From: a candidate division WOR-3 bacterium
Lineage (GTDB): Bacteria; Hydrothermota; 32-111
DNA: 64,000 nucleotides
NCBI GenBank assembly: GCA_037481815.1
Contig: JBBFKX010000003.1
Span: forward strand, 128,001 to 192,000
Direction of reading: 5' to 3'
Shown here: positions 22,913 to 50,694 of the stretch, in pieces
Layout: each line of letters starts with the position of its first letter
How positions within the stretch are numbered: the stretch's first letter is position 1
Made by a program: the position numbers and the translations under genes
The notes under the pieces: generated by a model
Seen by the model: the letters and a program-made list of their open reading frames with translations, nothing else
The model's database searches: none
What the model was told of the DNA's origin: nothing

Positions 22913-22977
22913 ATTTTATATTATCAGAATTTTTTGTCAACATTCTGGTTGACAAAATTTTCTTATATATATAGAAT
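22913..22977. promoter_or_regulatory. Back-to-back sigma70 promoters
   Basis: + strand TTGACA(22949)-N17-TAGAAT; - strand TTGACA(22940)-N16-TAAAAT. Confidence 0.7.
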
Positions 22978-39702: not shown

Positions 39703-40606
39703 CTTTGAATGACAGAATCAACCTGTGTTTTAAAACATAGGGAGCAACTTTTACAACATCATCTATATCGGGCGTAACTCTTCCATCCATCAGTGCATAT
39801 CCTTTTGCTGCAGCGATGATAAAAATTCCAGCCCTTGGACTCGCTCCCCATTTGATATACTCTTTTACAAGATCAACTTCACTCGTTTCAGGTCTTGAGT
39901 TTCTTAAAATTTTTGAAACAGTTTCAACGATGTTCGACCCAACAGGTGCACTTTTAACATATTCCTGTATCTTTATTATATCATCCTTTTTAACTATGCC
40001 CTGATCAATTTTAAAATCTTCGTTCACGATCCTTTGTTTTAAAATCTCCATCTCATATCTTTTTTCAGGATAATCTATCTGTATCATGAACATAAATCTA
40101 TCAAGTTCCGCCTCAGGTAAAGGATATGTACCTTCCTGTTCGATCGGGTTCTGTGTGGCAAACACATTGAACGGTTTTTCGAGTTGATAATCAACACCTT
40201 CATTTGTGACCATTCTTTCTTCCATCGATTGCAAAAGTGCTGCCTGAGTTTTGGGAGGTGTTCTATTTATCTCATCGGCAAGTATTATATTTGCAAACAC
40301 AGGACCTTTTATGAACTTGTACAGGGTTTCATTTCCATCCTTTCTTAGGACTGTTGTTCCAGTAATATCTGAAGGCATAAGATCCGGTGTAAACTGGATT
40401 CTACTATATTTACAATCTATGCTCTTTGCGATAAGTTTTATTATCAATGTTTTTGCAAGACCGGGAACACCAACTATTATTGAATGAGAATCACATATCA
40501 AAGTCAAAAATACCATCCTTATTATCTGATCCTGTCCTGCTACAACTTTTTTTACATTCTCTTCTATTCTTTTATAAATTTTTGAAACATCTATGATTTC
40601 ATTCAT
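39638..40606 (-). CDS. MoxR family AAA+ ATPase
   Basis: [58 protein letters not shown]. Confidence 0.93.
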
Positions 40607-43130
40607 CTTTTTCCTCTAAATTCTCTTCTTCATCTGATCCTTCATCCTCTTCCCCATACTGTTGTTCATCAACATTTTTTTCACTTCCATTTCCATTCTC
40701 GTTGTATTCATGTGCTATTATCGCAACATCGACTAGTTTATCACCTTCTGCAAGGTTCATCAATCTAACACCAGCAGTGTTCCTTCCGATAACTCTTATA
40801 TCCGATACTGCAATCCTTACTATCTGTCCCGATTCTGCTATCAAAAGAAGTTCATCTTTATCAAGAACTTCGATAGCATCAACAACAGCACCGTTCCTTT
40901 CATGTGTTTTTATCGCTATTACCCCTTTTCCACCTCTATGTGTCTTTCTGTATTCCTGCATCTCTGATCTTTTTCCATATCCATTTTCTGTTGCAATAAA
41001 CAGTGTCGATTCCCTTTTAACAACAACCATGCTGACAACCTCATCACCCTCTTCAAGTGTGACACCTTTAACTCCAGTTGCTCCTCTTCCCATATCTCTC
41101 ACTTCATTTTCTTCAAACCTTATCGCCATTCCCCACTTTGTCACTATGATAACATCGTTTGTTCCATCTGTTAAAGCAACATCTGCAACATTATCATTTT
41201 CATTAAGGTTGAGAGCGATTATTCCACCTTTTCGAGGATTGCTGAATGCGGAAAGTTCTGTTTTCTTTGCTATACCATTTTTTGTGATTATGAAGACAAA
41301 ATGTTTATCATCAAACTCTCTTACGGGAACAGTTCCTCTGATCTCTTCATCCTTTTCAAGTTCAAGAAGGTTGACTATCGCTCTTCCTTTTGATGTTCTT
41401 CCACCTTCAGGGATCTGGAAAACTTTCAACCAGTAAACCTTTCCTTTGTTTGTGAAGAATAGAATATACTGATGTGTTGATGCGATAAAAATCTTTTCAG
41501 CGAAATCATCATCCTTTGTTGTTAATCCGATAACTCCCTTTCCCCCTCTATTCTGTTTCCTGTATGAGGAAATAGATTGTCTTTTTATATATCCCTGATG
41601 TGTTATCGTCACTATAACATTTTCATCCGCTATAAGATCCTCTATTTCAAGTTCCTCATCCTCATTTGGAACTATTTCTGTCAATCTTCCGTCTCCATAC
41701 TCTTTTTTGATTTCAAGAAGTTCCTCTTTTACAACATTCAGAATATTTTTTTCAGATGAAAGTATGAATTTCAACCTTTCGATAAGTTTTATCAACTCTT
41801 CATACTCCTGATCGAGTTTCTCCCTTTCAAGGCCGGTCAACCTTGCAAGTTTCATTTCAAGTATCGCGTTTGCCTGAATTTCTGATAGTTTAAATTTTTT
41901 CTGAAGTTTTTCTGATGCATCCTGAACATTCTCTGATGTTTTTATTATTTTTACAACTTCATCGATATTTGAAACTGCGATTTTCAGTCCTTCAACGATG
42001 TGTGCCCTTTCCTCTGCTTTTTTCAGATCAAATTCTGTTCTTCTTCTGACAACTTCTTCTCTATGTTTTATGTAATGATGGATAATATCCTTCAATCCTA
42101 AAACTTTTGGTTCATTGTTCACAAGACAGATAAACATTATGGAATATGAGGTCTTCAGTTGAGTGTGTTTATAGAGTTGATTTAAAACAACTCTTTTCTC
42201 TGCACCTCTTTTGAGTTCAAGCACTATCCTCATTCCATCCCTATCGCTCTCATCTCTTATATCTGAAATATCTTCTATAACTTTGTTGTTAACAAGTTCA
42301 GCGATCTTTTCGATCAATTTTGCTTTATTTGTCTGATAGGGTATTTCAGTTATAATGATCTGTTCTTTTTCATTCTTTTTTGTTTCAAATTTAACTTTTC
42401 CTTTTAAAATTATCTGCCCTTTTCCTGTCTCATACGCTTTTTTTATTCCACTTATTCCCTGAATTATTCCACCTGTCGGGAAATCTGGTCCCTTTATATA
42501 TTTCATCAACTTTTCAACACTGATTTCAGGGTTATCTATGTATGCAACCATTCCATCAACAAGTTCTGTGATGTTATGTGGTGGAATATTTGTAGCCATT
42601 CCAACAGCGATTCCAGAAGTTCCATTCGCAAGAATGTTTGGAAACTTTGATGGGAGAACTACCGGTTCTTTGTAAGAACCATCAAAGTTTGGCATAAAGT
42701 TGACAGTATCCTTATCGATATCAACAAGCATCTCCTCAGCGATTTTTGAGAGTTTTGCTTCCGTGTACCTGTAAGCAGCAGCAGAATCACCATCTATTGA
42801 ACCAAAGTTTCCCTGTCCTTTCACAAGTGGATACCTTAATGAAAAGTCCTGAACCATTCTGACGAGTGTTTCATAAACAGCCATATCTCCATGAGGATGG
42901 TATTTACCAAGAACATCTCCAACAACTGTTGCTGACTTTTTAAACGGTTTGTTGTGGTAAAGCCCAAGTTCTTTCATCGCATAGAGTATTCTACGATGTA
43001 CTGGTTTTAAACCATCACGAACATCAGGTAAAGCCCTGCTTATGATTACAGACATTGCGTAATCGAGATAAGAGGACTTCATTTCATCTTCGATAGTTAC
43101 ATCAATGATTCTCTGTCTGTTGATATCCAT
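40599..43130 (-). CDS. gyrA: DNA gyrase subunit A
   Basis: [27 protein letters not shown], GyrA-box QNRGGKG, beta-pinwheel repeats, acidic tail. Confidence 0.97.
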
Positions 43131-43142
43131 TTACAAAACTCC

Positions 43143-43445
43143 TTAGTATTGTGGATAATTTTTATTTTTCACATTACCATTATTTTTATTGTAAACAAAA
43201 TCCTCTAACGGATTTTCAAGTGTTAGATTTAGTTCAGAAAGATCCTCAGGATACCTTCCATTGTTCATATAAAATGTTGCTATACCATTCCTTAACTTGT
43301 TAAGGTCAGATAACACTTTTGTTTTATCCGGAAGTTGTAAAACCTTTTCTGTTGTTTCTATTGTTTCTTTTTTTGTCTCACAAGCGTTGAATAACATCGA
43401 TATAAATAAAATTATCATAAAAATAAATAATATTCTTTTTATCAT
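43143..43445 (-). CDS. Small lipoprotein, pseudopilin-like C-terminus
   Basis: Lipobox FNAC; FYMNNGRYPEDL. Confidence 0.6.
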   Translation of the reverse strand: MIKRILFIFMIILFISMLFNACETKKETIETTEKVLQLPDKTKVLSDLNKLRNGIATFYMNNGRYPEDLSELNLTLENPLEDFVYNKNNGNVKNKNYPQY

Positions 43446-43519
43446 AATAAGAACTCCTAAAATTTAATGTTTTATTATAACAAAAAACTGAAAATCTTTC
43501 AACTAAAATCAGTTATTTT

Positions 43520-43630
43520 AAAAAATAAAAATGGGCAGATATTGAATCTGCCCGCTGAGCCCCGTAGGGCTTAACAGTTCGGCTTACGCCTTACTGGGAC
43601 TTGACTACAAAACCATTTTAAGTAGAATTT
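43520..43630 (-). ncRNA. tracrRNA
   Basis: Anti-repeat 43593-43628 (32/36 to the repeat, two differences being G.U wobbles), nexus UAAGGC-GUAA-GCC, hairpin AGCCC-UACG-GGGCU, terminator GGGCAGAU/AUCUGCCC + U-rich tail. Confidence 0.92.
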
Positions 43631-43664
43631 AAAAATATTTTAACTATTTAAAAATTTTTGTCAA
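43601..43664. promoter_or_regulatory. Overlapping cas9 and tracrRNA promoters
   Basis: + strand TTGACT(43601)-N16-TAGAAT(43628); - strand TTGACA(43664)-N16-TAAAAT(43637). Confidence 0.65.
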
Positions 43665-43675
43665 GGGGGAATTTT

Positions 43676-46600
43676 ATGAAGTATGTTCTTGGTCTTGATC
43701 TTGGATACAATTCAATCGGCTGGGCTATTTTAGAACAGGATGAAAATGGTAATCCTGTAAAACTTATAAATACAGGTGTTAGATTGTTTGATCCTTCAGT
43801 AGAAGACATGGAAAAGGATGGAAAGGGAAAAACAAAAAATGTCACAAGAAGAGAGGCAAGATTAAGAAGAAGACAACTTTTTAGAAAAACGAAACGACTT
43901 GAAAAACTTTTAAATTTTTTTATAGAAAATAATTTTTTCGAAGATCAAAAAGAAAAGATTTATGATTCTTTTGAAAGGGACGAATTTTTATCCAAACTTG
44001 ATAAAGAATTGTTAAATCCTTATATTTAAGAAGAAAAGGTCTTGATGAAAAACTTGAATTAAAAGAACTCGCAAGGATATTTTACCATATTGCACAACAT
44101 AGAGGTTTTAAAACAACAAAACGAGAACTTGCAAAGATGGAAGATAATAATGAAAAGAAAAAAGAGTCAGGTATTGTGCAGAGTGAGATAAATTCTCTTG
44201 CTGAACAAATAAAACAATCTGGCAGTAGAACTTTGGGAGAATATTTTGCAACACTTTTTGAAAAAGGAGAAAGAATCAGAGGAAAACATACAAGCAGAAA
44301 AATGTATGAAGAGGAGTTTGAGCAGATTTTTAAAAAACAGAAAGAGTTCTATCCAGAAATTTTAACAGATGATTTTAAGAAAAAACTTTACAAACTCATT
44401 TTCTTCCAGAGAGAATTGAAAAGCCAGAAAGATAAAGTTGGAGAATGTATTCTTGAAAAAGGTAAAAAAAGAGCACCCATTGCTCTCCTTGATTCTCAAA
44501 GGTTCAGATATATGTGCAAGGTAAACAATTTGAAACTGATTGATAAAGATACCGGAGAAATAACAGAGTTAACAAAAGAAGAAAAACAGAAAATTTTCAA
44601 TGAACTCGAAAACAATGAAAAACTGACTTTTGATAAGATAAAAAAACTTCTTGGTATAAAAGACAAAGAAAGATTCATTTTCAATATAGAGAAAGGTGGA
44701 GAAAAACATATCACTGGAAACAGAACAAATGTGAAGATGAAAAAGGTTTTTGATGATTGGGACAATTTTGATGAAGAGAAAAAGAACTCCATGATAAACG
44801 AAATCAGAACAATTGTAAAAATAGAAGCACTCGAAAGAAGAGGTTTAAAACTTGGATTTTCCCCTGAACAGGCAAAAAAATTCTCTCAGGTTGTTTTTGA
44901 AGATGGATATTTGAGTTATTCAAAAAAGGCGATCGAAAAACTTTTACCATTTTTAAAAGAAGGTTACAAAGAATATGATGCAATAAAAAAAGTTTACTCT
45001 GTTGAACTTGATAATCCAATACACGAAGAATTTGATTTTCTCCCTGAGATAGAAGATGTCATTCAAGTTAGAAATCCACTCGTTGAAAGAACCCTCTCTG
45101 AAACAAGATATCTTGTGAATTTTCTGATAAAAAAATATGGAAAACCAGAAACAATAAAAATAGAACTTGCAAGAGAATTGAAACTTTCAAATAAACAGAA
45201 AGAACAAAAAGTAAAGGAGAATCGAGAAAACAGGAAAAGAAGAGAGGATGCAATAGAAAAAATAAAAAATGATTTAAACATAACCGAACCAACAGAAGAT
45301 CAGATTTTAAGATACCTTCTTGCAGAAGAATGTGGTTGGCATTGCCCTTATACTGGAAAATCTATTAATATAAACGACCTTTTGGGTCCTCATCCATTAT
45401 TTGATATTGAGCATATAATTCCATTTGATAGATCTCTTGATAACTCTTTCTTAAACAAAACTCTCTGCTACTCAGAAGAAAACAGAAATGTAAAACACAA
45501 CAAAACACCCTATGAAGCATATTTTGGGACCGATAAGTGGGAAGCAATAATTGAAAGAGTAAAAAAATTCAATGGAAACGCCCGACTTGAAAAATTGAGA
45601 AGATTTCAGATGACACCAGAACAGGTTGAAAAACATTTTGAAGATTTTTCATCTCAATATTTGAACGACACAAGATACGCTTCAAAAGAAGCAAAAAAAT
45701 ATCTTGGTTTACTCTATGGTGGAATAAAAGATGATGGAATGGATAATAAAGGAAAAAGAAGAGTCATTGCAAGTTCTGGAAGAGTTACTTCAACATTAAG
45801 AAAAGCCCTTGGATTGAATACAATTTTAAACGAAGAAGATTTCAAAATAAGAGATGACCATCGCCAGCATGCTATTGATGCTATAACAATAGCGTTAACT
45901 GATAATTCAACTATCAAAAAAATTTCTGATGCTGCAAAAAAAGAAAAATCTTTAGAAAAACTTTTCAAAAACTATCCTCTTCCATGGGAAAATTTCAGGC
46001 AGGAGGTTGAAGAAAAAATTACAAACCTTCTCGTTTCAAGAAAAGTTAACAAAAAAGTTTCAGGTCAGATACATGATGAAACATATTACAAAAAACCATT
46101 TGAAGAGAACGGTCAATCTTATACACACAAAAGAGTTAATTTGGAAAGTTTAAGTGAAAAAGATATTGACAATATAGTTGATGAAAGAATAAAAGAGATT
46201 GTAAAAACAACTCTAAACGGAGAAGATCCTAAAATCAAATTCAAAGATCCTAAAAATCATCCTTATGTCGAACAAAAAGATGGAAAAAAAGTTCAAATAC
46301 ATAAGGTTACAATAAAAACCAAATTTGAAACTTATAATGAAATTGGCCCAGAAAAAGCGAAAAGATATGTTCAATCAGCAGATAGCCATCATATTGAAAT
46401 CTTTGAAGATTTGAAAACAGGCAAATGGGATGGATATGTTGTTTCTCTACTTGAGGCATACAAAAGAAAACAGAAAAATCTTCCAATCATAAACAGGAAC
46501 TTCGGAGAGAACAAAAAATTCTTATTTTCTCTTGCAAAAGGAGAGGTTATCGAACTTGATACTGAAGAGGGGAAAAGAGAGTTGTATGTTATAAAAAGAA

Positions 46601-46773
46601 TAGCAGGGAACAATAAACAATTGTTGTTCACTAAAATCCATGATGCAAGAAAATCTGATGAAATTAATAAAAACCCAAAAGGGCTAACAGCTGTTCCATC
46701 TGGACTACAGGCAAGAAATTGTAAAAAAGTTGTTATAAATATTCTTGGAGAAAAACATTACGCAAATGATTGA
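43676..46773 (+). pseudogene. cas9: Type II-C Cas9, ~1032 aa if a 1-nt frameshift at ~44025 is repaired
   Basis: RuvC-I LGLDLGYNSIGWA, Arg-rich bridge helix, NPY/LRRKGLDEKL..HIAQHRGF split across frames, RuvC-II IELARE, HNH DIEHIIP..RSLDNS..NK.LC...N..K.NKTPYE, RuvC-III HAIDA. Confidence 0.93.
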
Positions 46774-47686
46774 AAAAATAGTTGAGATTTCAGAAGGACC
46801 TGTAAAACTTTCTTCTGAGTATGAACAACTGATAGTATCAAAAAATGGAAGTGAAATTTTAAAAATTCCTTTAAATGAAATCGCTGTTATTCTAATTTCA
46901 ACTCCACTTGCTTCAATTTCAACAAATGTAATTTCTCTAATAACCAAAAATAAAGGGATGATTGTAACCTGTGATCAATTCTATCTTCCAGTTGGTGTAT
47001 TTTTACCTTATGAACTCAATTACATTCAATATGAAAGAATACAAAAACAGATTAACGCTTCTTTGCCATTAAAAAAACAACTCTGGAAACAGATAATTTC
47101 AGAGAAAATAAATTCTCAGGCATCAGTTTTAAAAAAACATAAAGGAAACGATTTTGGACTTTTCTACATTTCACAAAAAGTTCAATCAGGTGATTCAACA
47201 AACCTTGAAGCATACTCTTCAAAAATCTACTGGAAACAACTTTTTGGAGAAAAATTCAAACGCGATAAAGATCTACCTGGTGTTAATTCTATTTTAAACT
47301 ATGGTTATACAATTTTAAGAGCGATGACAGCAAGAGCGGTCTGTTCTTCTGGATTAAATCCAACACTTGGTATATTCCATCATAATAAATACAATACCTT
47401 CTGTCTTGCTGACGATCTTATGGAACCATATAGGCCTATAGTTGATGAGTTAACTTATAAGTTGATGATCAACTCAGGAATACAACTCTTTTTAACAAAA
47501 GAGTTAAAAAAAGAAATCATCGAACAACTTCTGGACAAAAAATTTGAAGTTAACAAAGAAAATTATTCACTTAACGAGTCACTGTTTAAATTAGCATCAT
47601 CTCTTGTAAATGTTTATAATGGAAAAGAGAAAAAGTTAAATATTCCAACACCTTATGAAAAGGAAAAAAACACCAACACAAAATAA
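46766..47686 (+). CDS. cas1: Type II CRISPR integrase Cas1
   Basis: KKQLWKQII..KI..Q, SGDSTNLEA..SKIYW..LF, NSILNYGYTILR, GIFHHNKYN.FCLADDLMEPYRP. Confidence 0.96.
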   Translation: MIEKIVEISEGPVKLSSEYEQLIVSKNGSEILKIPLNEIAVILISTPLASISTNVISLITKNKGMIVTCDQFYLPVGVFLPYELNYIQYERIQKQINASLPLKKQLWKQIISEKINSQASVLKKHKGNDFGLFYISQKVQSGDSTNLEAYSSKIYWKQLFGEKFKRDKDLPGVNSILNYGYTILRAMTARAVCSSGLNPTLGIFHHNKYNTFCLADDLMEPYRPIVDELTYKLMINSGIQLFLTKELKKEIIEQLLDKKFEVNKENYSLNESLFKLASSLVNVYNGKEKKLNIPTPYEKEKNTNTK

Positions 47687-48005
47687 CAGATACCATTCGA
47701 TGTGGATTTTAGCACTTTTCGATTTACCAACATTAACAAAAGAGGACAGAAAAAATTACAGGGACTTTAGAAAAGAACTTTTAAAATCTGGTTTTGAACA
47801 ATTACAATTTTCTGTGTATGCAAGATATGTCGGTGACGAAAAAAGAGCGGAAACATTTAAAAACAAAATAAAATCGGTTGTTCCACCAAAAGGTGAAGTC
47901 AGAATAATCTGTTTAACAGATATCCAGTTTGGAAAGATGGAAGTATATTATCAAAATTCCAGGAAAAAACCTGAAAAGAAACTTGAACAACTTCTACTTT
48001 TTTAA
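47655..48005 (+). CDS. cas2: Cas2
   Basis: MWILALFDLP, FRKELLKSGF..LQFSVY, PPKGEVR...LTD.QF, QLLLF. Confidence 0.96.
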   Translation: MKRKKTPTQNNRYHSMWILALFDLPTLTKEDRKNYRDFRKELLKSGFEQLQFSVYARYVGDEKRAETFKNKIKSVVPPKGEVRIICLTDIQFGKMEVYYQNSRKKPEKKLEQLLLF

Positions 48006-48022
48006 TCCAGTTTTAACAATAA

Positions 48023-48053
48023 ACCCTCTCATTGTGTGAACTTAAGAGAGGGT
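48023..48053 (-). terminator. Hairpin between cas2 and array (probable array terminator / leader element)
   Basis: ACCCTCTC-N15-GAGAGGGT, 2 nt from repeat 1, followed by TTATTGTT on the minus strand. Confidence 0.5.
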
Positions 48054-48055
48054 CT

Positions 48056-49742
48056 ATTCTACTTGAAATGGTTTTGTGGTCAAGCCCCAGCAAAGTTTTA
48101 TGCATAGATTCTAAAATTAGTATTCTACTTGAAATGGTTTTGTGGTCAAGCCCCAGCGAAAAATCCTTTGACTTTTCTACAATGCTTATTCTACTTGAAA
48201 TGGTTTTGTGGTCAAGCCCCAGCGCGATTATATTCTTCAAAACAAAATCCTCTATTCTACTTGAAATGGTTTTGTGGTCAAGCCCCAGCTAAACTATGAC
48301 AATAGTGAGGATACTGCTAATTCTACTTGAAATGGTTTTGTGGTCAAGCCCCAGCAACCTTCTTTTGATAATGTCAATATGATAAATTCTACTTGAAATG
48401 GTTTTGTGGTCAAGCCCCAGCGGGATAGCGGAGCAATAGAAAGTGATGCATATTCTACTTGAAATGGTTTTGTGGTCAAGCCCCAGCCAAATAAGAGATG
48501 ATATAGAAGTACTATATATTCTACTTGAAATGGTTTTGTGGTCAAGCCCCAGCTACTCGCTTCTTTCAAGGATGAAAAATAAAATTCTACTTGAAATGGT
48601 TTTGTGGTCAAGCCCCAGCGCTGGAGTTTGTTTCAAGTAATGACTCACCATTCTACTTGAAATGGTTTTGTGGTCAAGCCCCAGCAACTTATGAGGTTTA
48701 TAAAAAATTAAACGAATTCTACTTGAAATGGTTTTGTGGTCAAGCCCCAGCAAAAAAATGTTTTATATATAATAGAAACAAATTCTACTTGAAATGGTTT
48801 TGTGGTCAAGCCCCAGCAGCTTTGAACCCGGTTTATACAGTATTCATATTCTACTTGAAATGGTTTTGTGGTCAAGCCCCAGCCAATTCTTGTGCTTTGT
48901 TTTCAAGTGTGTTATTCTACTTGAAATGGTTTTGTGGTCAAGCCCCAGCAAAGGAATAGGTGTTGGTTTAGGGGCTGGTATTCTACTTGAAATGGTTTTG
49001 TGGTCAAGCCCCAGCCATAGATGGGTCTGATGCATACCCAGATAAATTCTACTTGAAATGGTTTTGTGGTCAAGCCCCAGCTGTTTAATTTGCTTCCTGT
49101 ATTGTAATATTATTCTACTTGAAATGGTTTTGTGGTCAAGCCCCAGCCAAAAACCAAAATGACAGATGTTGAAAGTGATTCTACTTGAAATGGTTTTGTG
49201 GTCAAGCCCCAGCCATAGATGGGTCTGATGCATACCCAGATAAATTCTACTTGAAATGGTTTTGTGGTCAAGCCCCAGCTGTTTAATTTGCTTCCTGTAT
49301 TGTAATATTATTCTACTTGAAATGGTTTTGTGGTCAAGCCCCAGCCAAAAACCAAAATGACAGATGTTGAAAGTGATTCTACTTGAAATGGTTTTGTGGT
49401 CAAGCCCCAGCTATCGATTTGGTTTTGTAATAACATGGTTAATTCTACTTGAAATGGTTTTGTGGTCAAGCCCCAGCCTCGAGTTTGTTTCAAGTAATGA
49501 CTCACCAATTCTACTTGAAATGGTTTTGTGGTCAAGCCCCAGCACCCGGCTTCAATGTTTTTATCTGTATTGAATTCTACTTGAAATGGTTTTGTGGTCA
49601 AGCCCCAGCTCGACTGCACTGGAGATGCTGTTGTTGGAGAATTCTACTTGAAATGGTTTTGTGGTCAAGCCCCAGCTCATTTTTTTGTAAAACTTCCTTA
49701 AAAAATATTCTACTTGAAATGTTTTTGTGGTCAAGCCCCAGC
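48056..49742 (-). CRISPR. Type II-C CRISPR array, 26 repeats / 25 spacers (22 unique)
   Basis: 36-nt repeat ATTCTACTTGAAATGGTTTTGTGGTCAAGCCCCAGC (+), 30-nt spacers (one 31 nt), last repeat has one G>T change; crRNA sense is minus, from tracrRNA complementarity. Confidence 0.99.
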
Positions 49743-49770
49743 TAAGAAGTATATTGTTAAATTGTTATTG

Positions 49771-50058
49771 GGGACGGTGCTTGACTTTTTGACTTTTTTT
49801 TGTAACTTTATTTTTTTACGAAACTTAAAATTGATATAAATTTTTAGTTTTTTTTAATTTTTTTAAAACAAAAAAGTAAACTTTTTTATTCAATATCTTT
49901 TTTTGCCTTTGTTTATGATAGTTTCGGAATAATATAAATAGTGAAAATACAACAAAAACCTTAAAAAAATAAATAAAATTCTAACAGTTTTTTTTCGTAT
50001 AACTTATTTTAAAACAATAAGTTAAAATATTTACTGTCAAAAAGTCAAGCACCGTCCC
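49771..50058. mobile_element. 288-bp non-coding element bounded by perfect 23-bp inverted repeats (MITE/REPIN-like or invertible)
   Basis: GGGACGGTGCTTGACTTTTTGAC at 49771-49793 and its exact reverse complement at 50036-50058; very AT-rich interior; no obvious TSD. Confidence 0.6.
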
Positions 50059-50117
50059 TAAGTTTATTTTTATATTAAAATCTTGTTTTATCTTAAATAA
50101 CCTGTTATAATTATTTT

Positions 50118-50312
50118 ATGAAAAAACCTGTAAAAATTCTAAAGCAAAAGGAAAAAGCAGAATTTAATCGAAGTGTCTGGCATAACATGACTCCTGATGA
50201 AAGATTACAGATTGTTGAAAAATTAAAAGAAAATTATGTCAAAAGTTTTTTAAACAAAAATGCACAAGGATTTAAAAGAGTTTTTAAAAAGTTTAAACGA
50301 AAAAAAAGTTGA
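50118..50312 (+). CDS. Small basic protein, putative partner/antitoxin of the nucleotidyltransferase
   Basis: W..MTPDERL motif; overlaps the next gene; extended -10 lies 6 nt upstream of ATG. Confidence 0.65.
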   Translation: MKKPVKILKQKEKAEFNRSVWHNMTPDERLQIVEKLKENYVKSFLNKNAQGFKRVFKKFKRKKS

Positions 50313-50694
50313 TTACATGATTGTTGGAGGAATAGCAGTAGCATATTACGGTTATCCCCGCTACACTGGTGATATAGACATCTGGATAAAAAAGTCAAAA
50401 GAAAATGCTCAAAAAGTTATTGAGGTGGTAAAAAATTTTGGCTATTCAAATATCGATTTATCACTTGAGGATCTCCTTGAAGATAATATGGTTTTTCAAT
50501 TCGGAGTTGAACCAAATAGAAACGATTTAATCACAGATCTGGATGGTATAACTTTTGAAAAAGCAGAGAAAAATAAACAATTGATATCTCTTTAAAACAT
50601 TTCAGTTTATATTGTTTCTCTTGAAGATTTAAAGAAAAATAAAAAGGCATCAGGAAGATATAAAGATCTTGATGATATTGAAAATCTTCCGTGA
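50260..50694 (+). pseudogene. AbiEii/MenT-like nucleotidyltransferase with in-frame TAA at 50593
   Basis: VGGIAVAYYGYPRYTGDIDIW; after the stop the same frame continues NISVYIVSLEDLKKNKKASGRYKDLDDIENLP*. Confidence 0.75.

Follow-up and report, generated by a model that had tools for sequence, protein, structure and literature searches.

A type II-C CRISPR-Cas locus in a candidate division WOR-3 bacterium probably transcribes its trans-activating CRISPR RNA (tracrRNA) and its cas9-cas1-cas2 genes divergently, on the − and + strands respectively, from one shared control region in which the promoter facing cas9 is an inherited by-product. The region spans positions 43593–43676 of the 64,000-nucleotide stretch analyzed here (contig JBBFKX010000003.1, positions 128,001–192,000; hereafter the window, whose numbering is used throughout). 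On the − strand, TTGACA-N16-TAAAAT is, to judge by its sequence, the tracrRNA promoter. On the + strand, TTGACT-N16-TAGAAT is by the same evidence the internal promoter of the CRISPR repeat itself, carried along because the tracrRNA anti-repeat is a near-full copy of the repeat. The + strand promoter thus appears to be a by-product of descent and complementarity and not a conserved device; we nevertheless regard it as the most likely cas9 promoter in this genome, an assignment to which we give about an even chance.

Promoters were scored by their matches, out of 12, to an Escherichia coli-type consensus, and start sites were placed at the usual 7 nt from the −10 box. The candidate cas9 promoter (43601–43628, + strand, 10/12) lies inside the anti-repeat, with TTGACT at 43601–43606, TAGAAT at 43623–43628 and a predicted start at ~43635. 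The tracrRNA promoter (43637–43664, − strand, 11/12) has TTGACA at 43664–43659, TAAAAT at 43642–43637 and a predicted start at ~43630. Only 8 bp (43629–43636) separate the two −10 hexamers, and each promoter lies inside the stretch that the other is predicted to transcribe. The cas9 ribosome-binding site and start codon follow at 43663–43678 on the + strand, with AAGGGGGA at 43663–43670, abutting the tracrRNA −35 hexamer (TGTCAAGGGGGA), and ATG at 43676. The first-pass annotation of this DNA had described the hexamers, both 16-nt spacers, the 8-bp gap, AAGGGGGA and the ATG, and every one of them was found where it had placed them; the two predicted starts and the mutual enclosure of the promoters, which it had also proposed, follow from the geometry.

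To place the window among its relatives we analyzed 38 loci, namely the window and 37 of 74 fetched loci (designated by L numbers). Loci were excluded if the available stretch lacked a repeat consensus of 30 nt or more or a recognizable cas9 N-terminus, and two Flavobacteriia loci, L050 and L058, were set aside because their arrays face the other way. Anti-repeats were located by local alignment, with each match lengthened gap-free as far as the repeat ends, after a global alignment with cheap gaps had proved unusable.

The predicted tracrRNA gene (43518–43630, − strand, both ends being predictions) has the anti-repeat, 3′ hairpins and terminator by which a tracrRNA is recognized: 3′ of the anti-repeat come a linker of the AAGGC type that contains a small hairpin, then a C(UACG)G hairpin, and last a terminator hairpin at 43553–43533 with a U tract behind it. 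The predicted RNA folds at −35.9 kcal/mol (z = −4.81 relative to shuffled sequences), and the linker-hairpin-terminator module recurs 3′ of the anti-repeat in 27 aligned loci. Two specified helices covary across these 27 loci, with 85.8% of cells standard-paired as opposed to 42–50% when the partners are slid by 1–3 columns; 39 cells are changed on both sides, and the observed values were reached by none of 500 shuffles. Inspection of the alignment gave the middle hairpin, whose pairs were then counted against these controls; RNAalifold applied to the 27-sequence alignment recovered only the terminator helix. A scan of 42500–50500 with Rfam at E ≤ 1 returned two chance matches and no tracrRNA family.

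The anti-repeat itself (43593–43628, − strand) is the sole repeat-like copy (at least 22/36) outside the array in the window. Its + strand matches the crRNA-sense repeat (crRNA, CRISPR RNA) at 32 of 36 positions, which bears out its earlier description as a near-full repeat copy; in the duplex with the crRNA repeat, two of the four differences give G-U pairs and two give C-A mismatches. A weaker − strand site, TTAAAA-N17-TAAAAT (43615–43643, 9/12), has its −10 box inside the anti-repeat and, if used, would yield a shorter tracrRNA starting within it.

The position of the tracrRNA promoter is widely shared. An anti-repeat lies no more than 170 nt upstream of cas9, oriented as in the window, in 36 of the 38 loci, and the gap between the two ranges from 27 to 160 nt, with 12 of the 36 gaps falling at 43–51 nt. 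Beyond the anti-repeat a − strand promoter scores at least 9/12 in 26/36 loci and at least 10/12 in 19/36; in 18 of the 26, the edge of its −10 box is 6–9 nt from the anti-repeat end. Together with the terminator and covarying hairpins behind it, this recurrence upholds the first-pass identification of the − strand site as the tracrRNA promoter. In ten of the 36 loci, which come from several phyla, the −35 box runs directly into the cas9 ribosome-binding site (nnnCAAGGrG, start codon 5–10 nt on), producing the fused motif TGTCAAGGrG found in the window at 43659–43670 and in L002, L007, L008, L011, L012, L026, L035, L043 and L055. An ATG 5–7 nt after this motif in L008 and L026 suggests that their assigned cas9 starts are too far downstream.

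The + strand promoter can be traced to the repeat. The CRISPR array (48056–49742, − strand) is made up of 26 repeats, each 36 nt long, with 25 spacers between them, of which 24 measure 30 nt and one 31 nt. All 26 repeats carry TTGACC-N16-TAGAAT, ending in the −10-like box when read in the crRNA sense; the + strand anti-repeat promoter is one base away from this sequence. Related repeats share the feature, with TAnnnT terminal in 37/38 and TTG at the −35 place in 32/38, and the earlier proposal that the repeat carries a promoter therefore holds beyond the window. At the far end of the array no − strand promoter-like site of at least 9/12 was found within about 360 bp beyond it. From the − strand position of the tracrRNA we infer that the array is read on that strand as well, against the direction of the cas genes, an orientation also documented in other type II-C systems (Chylinski 2013; Clostridium cellulolyticum, available text of PMC7038990). 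The opposite arrangement, with the array read on the + strand and the anti-repeat acting inside the cas9 leader, was rejected: the conserved linker, hairpins and terminator lie 3′ of the anti-repeat only on the − strand.

The crossed arrangement occurs only once in the window but is no independent coincidence. Outside the array the window contains 56 sites scoring at least 10/12, or ~0.45 per kb per strand, and the pair described here is the only crossed pair of opposite −10 boxes at a gap of 0–20 bp in the 64 kb. Since the repeat ends in a −10 box, the anti-repeat is full-length and the tracrRNA starts at the anti-repeat edge, the geometry arises of necessity. A second strong divergent pair (22913–22977, 11/12 each) is of the ordinary back-to-back kind, with −35 boxes 8 bp apart.

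We then considered what drives cas9. The two genes upstream, a 100-codon open reading frame (ORF) with no Pfam match (43143–43445) and gyrA (40599–43130, assigned by Pfam), are both on the − strand, which places cas9 at the head of its own transcription unit. Within the 230-bp intergenic stretch 43446–43675, no + strand site other than the anti-repeat promoter reaches 9/12. The tracrRNA promoter and the ribosome-binding site already take up the 47 bp from the anti-repeat to the cas9 ATG, which argues for the inherited promoter as the most likely source of cas9 transcripts. Its form is also in keeping with the rest of the window, where nine of the 13 sites scoring at least 11/12 have the same 16-nt spacer; eight of the 13 lie outside long ORFs, and six of these eight are 1–77 nt before the start of an ORF on the same strand. 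The + strand anti-repeat promoter thus fits the promoter style of this genome, and plausibly drives cas9.

Should both promoters be active, the tracrRNA would be initiated by the − strand promoter at the first base of the anti-repeat, and cas9-cas1-cas2 would be transcribed from the promoter inherited via the anti-repeat. Their open complexes would melt the same DNA at ~43627–43638, and each elongating polymerase would pass through the other promoter. From this geometry and established footprint sizes, one RNA polymerase would be expected to exclude or dislodge the other, with a regulatory effect that depends on promoter occupancy. A tentative extension, which we consider less probable than not by some distance, is that in the WOR-3 lineage and in the few loci such as L002 and L015 with both hexamers intact the inherited promoter is the real cas9-cas1-cas2 promoter, so that one module sets the initiation of both crRNA and cas mRNA, and the interlock couples tracrRNA and Cas9 output at each polymerase binding event.

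Several points weigh against the inherited promoter as the driver of cas9, most of them from the comparison. At a threshold of 9/12 (with A2 and T6 kept) the + strand promoter is present in only five of the 36 anti-repeats (L002, L010, L015, L059 and the window) as opposed to 18/36 of the repeats of the same loci; TTG is kept in 11/36, being commonly replaced by AAG, and TAnnnT in 21/36. Where a + strand site of at least 9/12 exists (17/36 loci), the best one lies in the anti-repeat in five, downstream of it (19–75 nt) in seven, and upstream of the tracrRNA gene (150–198 nt) in five. The promoter is thus not maintained in relatives, most of which must drive cas9 otherwise. L029, for instance, has its own TTGACT-N16-TATAAT between the tracrRNA promoter and cas9, and roomier loci appear to carry separate cas9 promoters. 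In 14 of 27 loci, including the window, a + strand TAnnnT mirroring the tracrRNA −10 box ends 9–13 nt past the anti-repeat. All relatives compared are distant (Cas9 identity ≤44%), the E. coli-type score is a weak yardstick for the many that belong to GC-rich phyla, and all start sites are predictions from sequence. The frameshift in cas9 may reflect a decaying locus or an error in the assembly. As to the interlock, five tested E. coli bidirectional promoters gave no measurable competition at basal activity, and competition appeared only with one direction strongly activated (available text of PMC12825309).

The same comparison bears on whether the anti-repeat has been selected as a three-function element, serving as crRNA-type promoter, cas operon promoter and anti-repeat at once, with an interlock that evolved to balance cas and tracrRNA output. 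The positions most important to the promoter, 9, 10 and 36, are the least conserved in their neighbourhoods in anti-repeats, yet nearly invariant in repeats. The TT of the −35 box (positions 9 and 10) matches the repeat in 11 and 8 of 26 anti-repeats, respectively. At position 36, where the −10 box has its final T, 21 of 27 full-length anti-repeats match the repeat, the lowest figure among the last 20 positions, as against 23–27 at positions 17–35; nine loci have an anti-repeat that ends short of the −10 box altogether. On the anti-repeat strand of related loci the repeat TT at positions 9–10 is very often AA, which would open a U-U/U-U internal loop in the crRNA:tracrRNA duplex and would at the same time destroy the −35 box on the cas9-sense strand.

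Retention of the promoter is moreover not enriched where cas9 is close (2/14 short-gap versus 3/22 long-gap loci, Fisher p = 1). In the window itself, the chance that four substitutions in 36 positions miss all six key promoter bases is 47% (p = 0.47), so the intact promoter carries no signal of selection. Both promoters are near consensus (10/12 and 11/12) and their crossed geometry is unique in the window, which speaks for a selected element, but that geometry is automatic from known features. In L002, the fetched locus closest by repeat, the gap is likewise 47 nt and the anti-repeat has TTGACA-N17-TACATT intact, that of L015 also keeps a 10/12 site, and in the window there is no space for another cas9 promoter between the anti-repeat and the ATG; set against retention in 5/36 anti-repeats, these points leave a selected three-function element unlikely. 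The first-pass annotation had put forward such a three-in-one arrangement. Its proposal that the anti-repeat acts as a cas promoter stands to the extent that no other + strand candidate of at least 9/12 exists in the 230 bp, whereas an evolved three-in-one design is not supported, and conservation of the interlocked layout, which it had named in advance as a check, was not borne out in the distant relatives compared.

The mirrored hexamer noted above suggests another source of cas9 transcripts, in which the tracrRNA promoter is pseudo-symmetric and is read backwards, the anti-repeat promoter being silent or minor. In the window the + strand −10 box would be TATTTT (43636–43641), which overlaps the tracrRNA −10 box in mirror image and predicts a start at ~43648, ~18 bp from that of the tracrRNA. 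The concentration of TAnnnT at 9–13 nt past the anti-repeat is distinct, any other single offset from +1 to +40 holding 0–3 loci, and of the seven loci in which a full-length anti-repeat carries a broken −10 box, three (L008, L035 and L043) have the hexamer. In the available text of PMC12825309 the commonest class of bacterial bidirectional promoter likewise has −10 boxes that overlap and starts separated by 18 bp. AT-rich −10 boxes are partly symmetric by nature, however, so that some enrichment is expected without function, and the TATTTT of the window matches only 4/6, has no preceding −35 box or TG extension, and is weaker than the anti-repeat promoter. For this genome we consider the backwards reading improbable, to the same degree as a selected three-function element, and retain the inherited anti-repeat promoter as the best candidate.

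The condition of cas9 requires separate comment. Frame 1 of the gene reaches a stop at 44027–44029, after 117 codons, and the remaining 900-odd codons are in frame 3; against an intact relative, Cas9 residues 1–117 align to frame 1 and residues from 118 on to frame 3, the RuvC-I motif lying within the first 117. The break fits a one-base difference near 44020–44029, which may be genuine or may have arisen in assembly. Since the repeats are identical in 25 of 26 cases, with one change in the last, the break is either recent or an error of assembly. The least probable account, that the + strand promoter has no role and that cas9 is transcribed from farther upstream through the tracrRNA gene or is not usefully expressed in a decaying locus, draws on this frameshift, on weaker or more distant + strand sites at 43391–43418 (9/12) and 43130–43159 (10/12), and on the five of 17 related loci whose best + strand site is 150–198 nt upstream of the anti-repeat end, but those upstream sites in the window lie within an ORF of the opposite orientation and would give transcripts antisense to the tracrRNA over its whole length, the near-identity of the repeats argues for a recently active system, and a single-base frameshift in an assembly of the metagenome-assembled genome (MAG) type may be an error. 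Upstream gene direction in the relatives, as judged by a longest-ORF rule that is too crude in GC-rich genomes, is opposite to cas9 in 18 and the same in 14 of the 32 judgeable loci.

The locus as a whole is ordered as tracrRNA (− strand), cas9-cas1-cas2 (+ strand), and the array directly 3′ of cas2. The ORF map and Pfam give the type II-C gene set, cas9, cas1 and cas2 without csn2 or cas4. The frameshift-interrupted cas9 (43676–46773, + strand, type II-C, ~1032 codons) encodes HNH, RuvC-III and Cas9 alpha-helical lobe domains (Pfam HNH_4, RuvC_III and Cas9_a), and the nearest Cas9 proteins are intact, 1032-residue products of candidate division WOR-3 MAGs, at 94% and 92% identity; at the protein level the WOR-3 relatives span 62–94%. 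It is followed on the + strand by cas1 (46745–47686, Pfam Cas_Cas1, E = 5.5e-30) and cas2 (47655–48005, Pfam CRISPR_Cas2, E = 6.3e-17). Between the cas2 stop and the first repeat lies a GC-rich hairpin (48021–48052) that is T-rich on both flanks and was seen in the sequence itself, though not listed by a scan; it could terminate transcripts arriving from either side, those of the cas operon as well as those of the converging array.

Within the array, the single divergent repeat has a G-to-T change and is the one farthest from the cas genes (49707–49742). Three repeat-spacer units at 48980–49177 are duplicated exactly as 49178–49375, spacers 15–17 being the same as spacers 18–20. Spacers 9 (48620–48649) and 22 (49478–49507) correspond to the same protospacer with a shift of 1–2 bases and 28 matching bases, which suggests that a single target was sampled twice, on separate occasions.

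Should cas9 indeed be transcribed from the inherited promoter, the locus would illustrate how a repeat-derived tracrRNA can deliver a ready-made promoter to an adjacent cas operon, and transcription of crRNA, cas9 and tracrRNA would be tied together without a regulator protein. A firmer and wider point is that in a large clade of compact Cas9 loci the tracrRNA promoter is wedged in, with the anti-repeat on one side and the cas9 ribosome-binding site on the other; where the gap is short, the cas9 promoter must therefore overlap the tracrRNA gene or its promoter. This is relevant to moving such loci into other hosts or trimming them for genome editing, where the cas9 promoter may be lost if the cut is made at the tracrRNA boundary.

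Comparison with described systems places most of these features in a known setting. According to the available sections of PMC12477760 and PMC7038990, repeat-embedded promoters have been described for type II-C systems. The window resembles those of Neisseria meningitidis and, as proposed, C. cellulolyticum in its minimal set of cas9, cas1 and cas2, in an array opposite to the cas genes, and in repeats that end in a −10-like box, such that crRNAs would start inside spacers (PMC12477760; PMC7038990); in C. cellulolyticum the tracrRNA is also upstream of the cas genes (PMC7038990). It differs in that its repeat has a near-consensus −35 box and a 16-nt spacer, whereas the same sections give an extended −10 box, and in that an almost complete anti-repeat lies immediately next to cas9, so that the inherited promoter is directed into that gene. 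A promoter located opposite the anti-repeat, on the other strand, is not discussed in the available sections of either paper.

The divergent pair on one stretch of DNA also recalls bacterial bidirectional promoters, in which, as set out in the available text of PMC12825309, two divergent promoters share DNA and one polymerase binding event prevents the other. In that class the −10 boxes overlap and the divergent starts are 18, 10 or 23 bp apart, 18 being commonest. The TAGAAT and TAAAAT boxes of the window do not overlap: they lie 8 bp from each other in a crossed arrangement, their predicted starts are ~5 bp apart, and they come from two unrelated sources, a repeat copy and a tracrRNA promoter, not from sequence symmetry; only the weaker TATTTT/TAAAAT pair fits the overlapping geometry.

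With the long form of the Streptococcus pyogenes tracrRNA (tracr-L) the window shares a tracrRNA locus directly upstream of cas9 and tied to control of cas9 transcription. In S. pyogenes, by the parts available of PMC10120712 and PMC12477760, an RNA-guided Cas9 complex binds the cas9 promoter, whereas direct overlap of promoters is proposed here. No − strand site of at least 9/12 that could serve a long form was found in 43665–44100, in agreement with the first-pass view that the two arrangements differ. A full-text literature search, which did not extend to the key paper on N. meningitidis repeat promoters or to one type II-C review, returned no description of the strand opposite the anti-repeat as a cas9 promoter. 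Based on these comparisons, the locus type, repeat-borne promoters, a tracrRNA divergent upstream of cas9 and overlapping divergent promoters are already known, and what appears to be new is the putative use of the opposite strand of the anti-repeat as a cas promoter.

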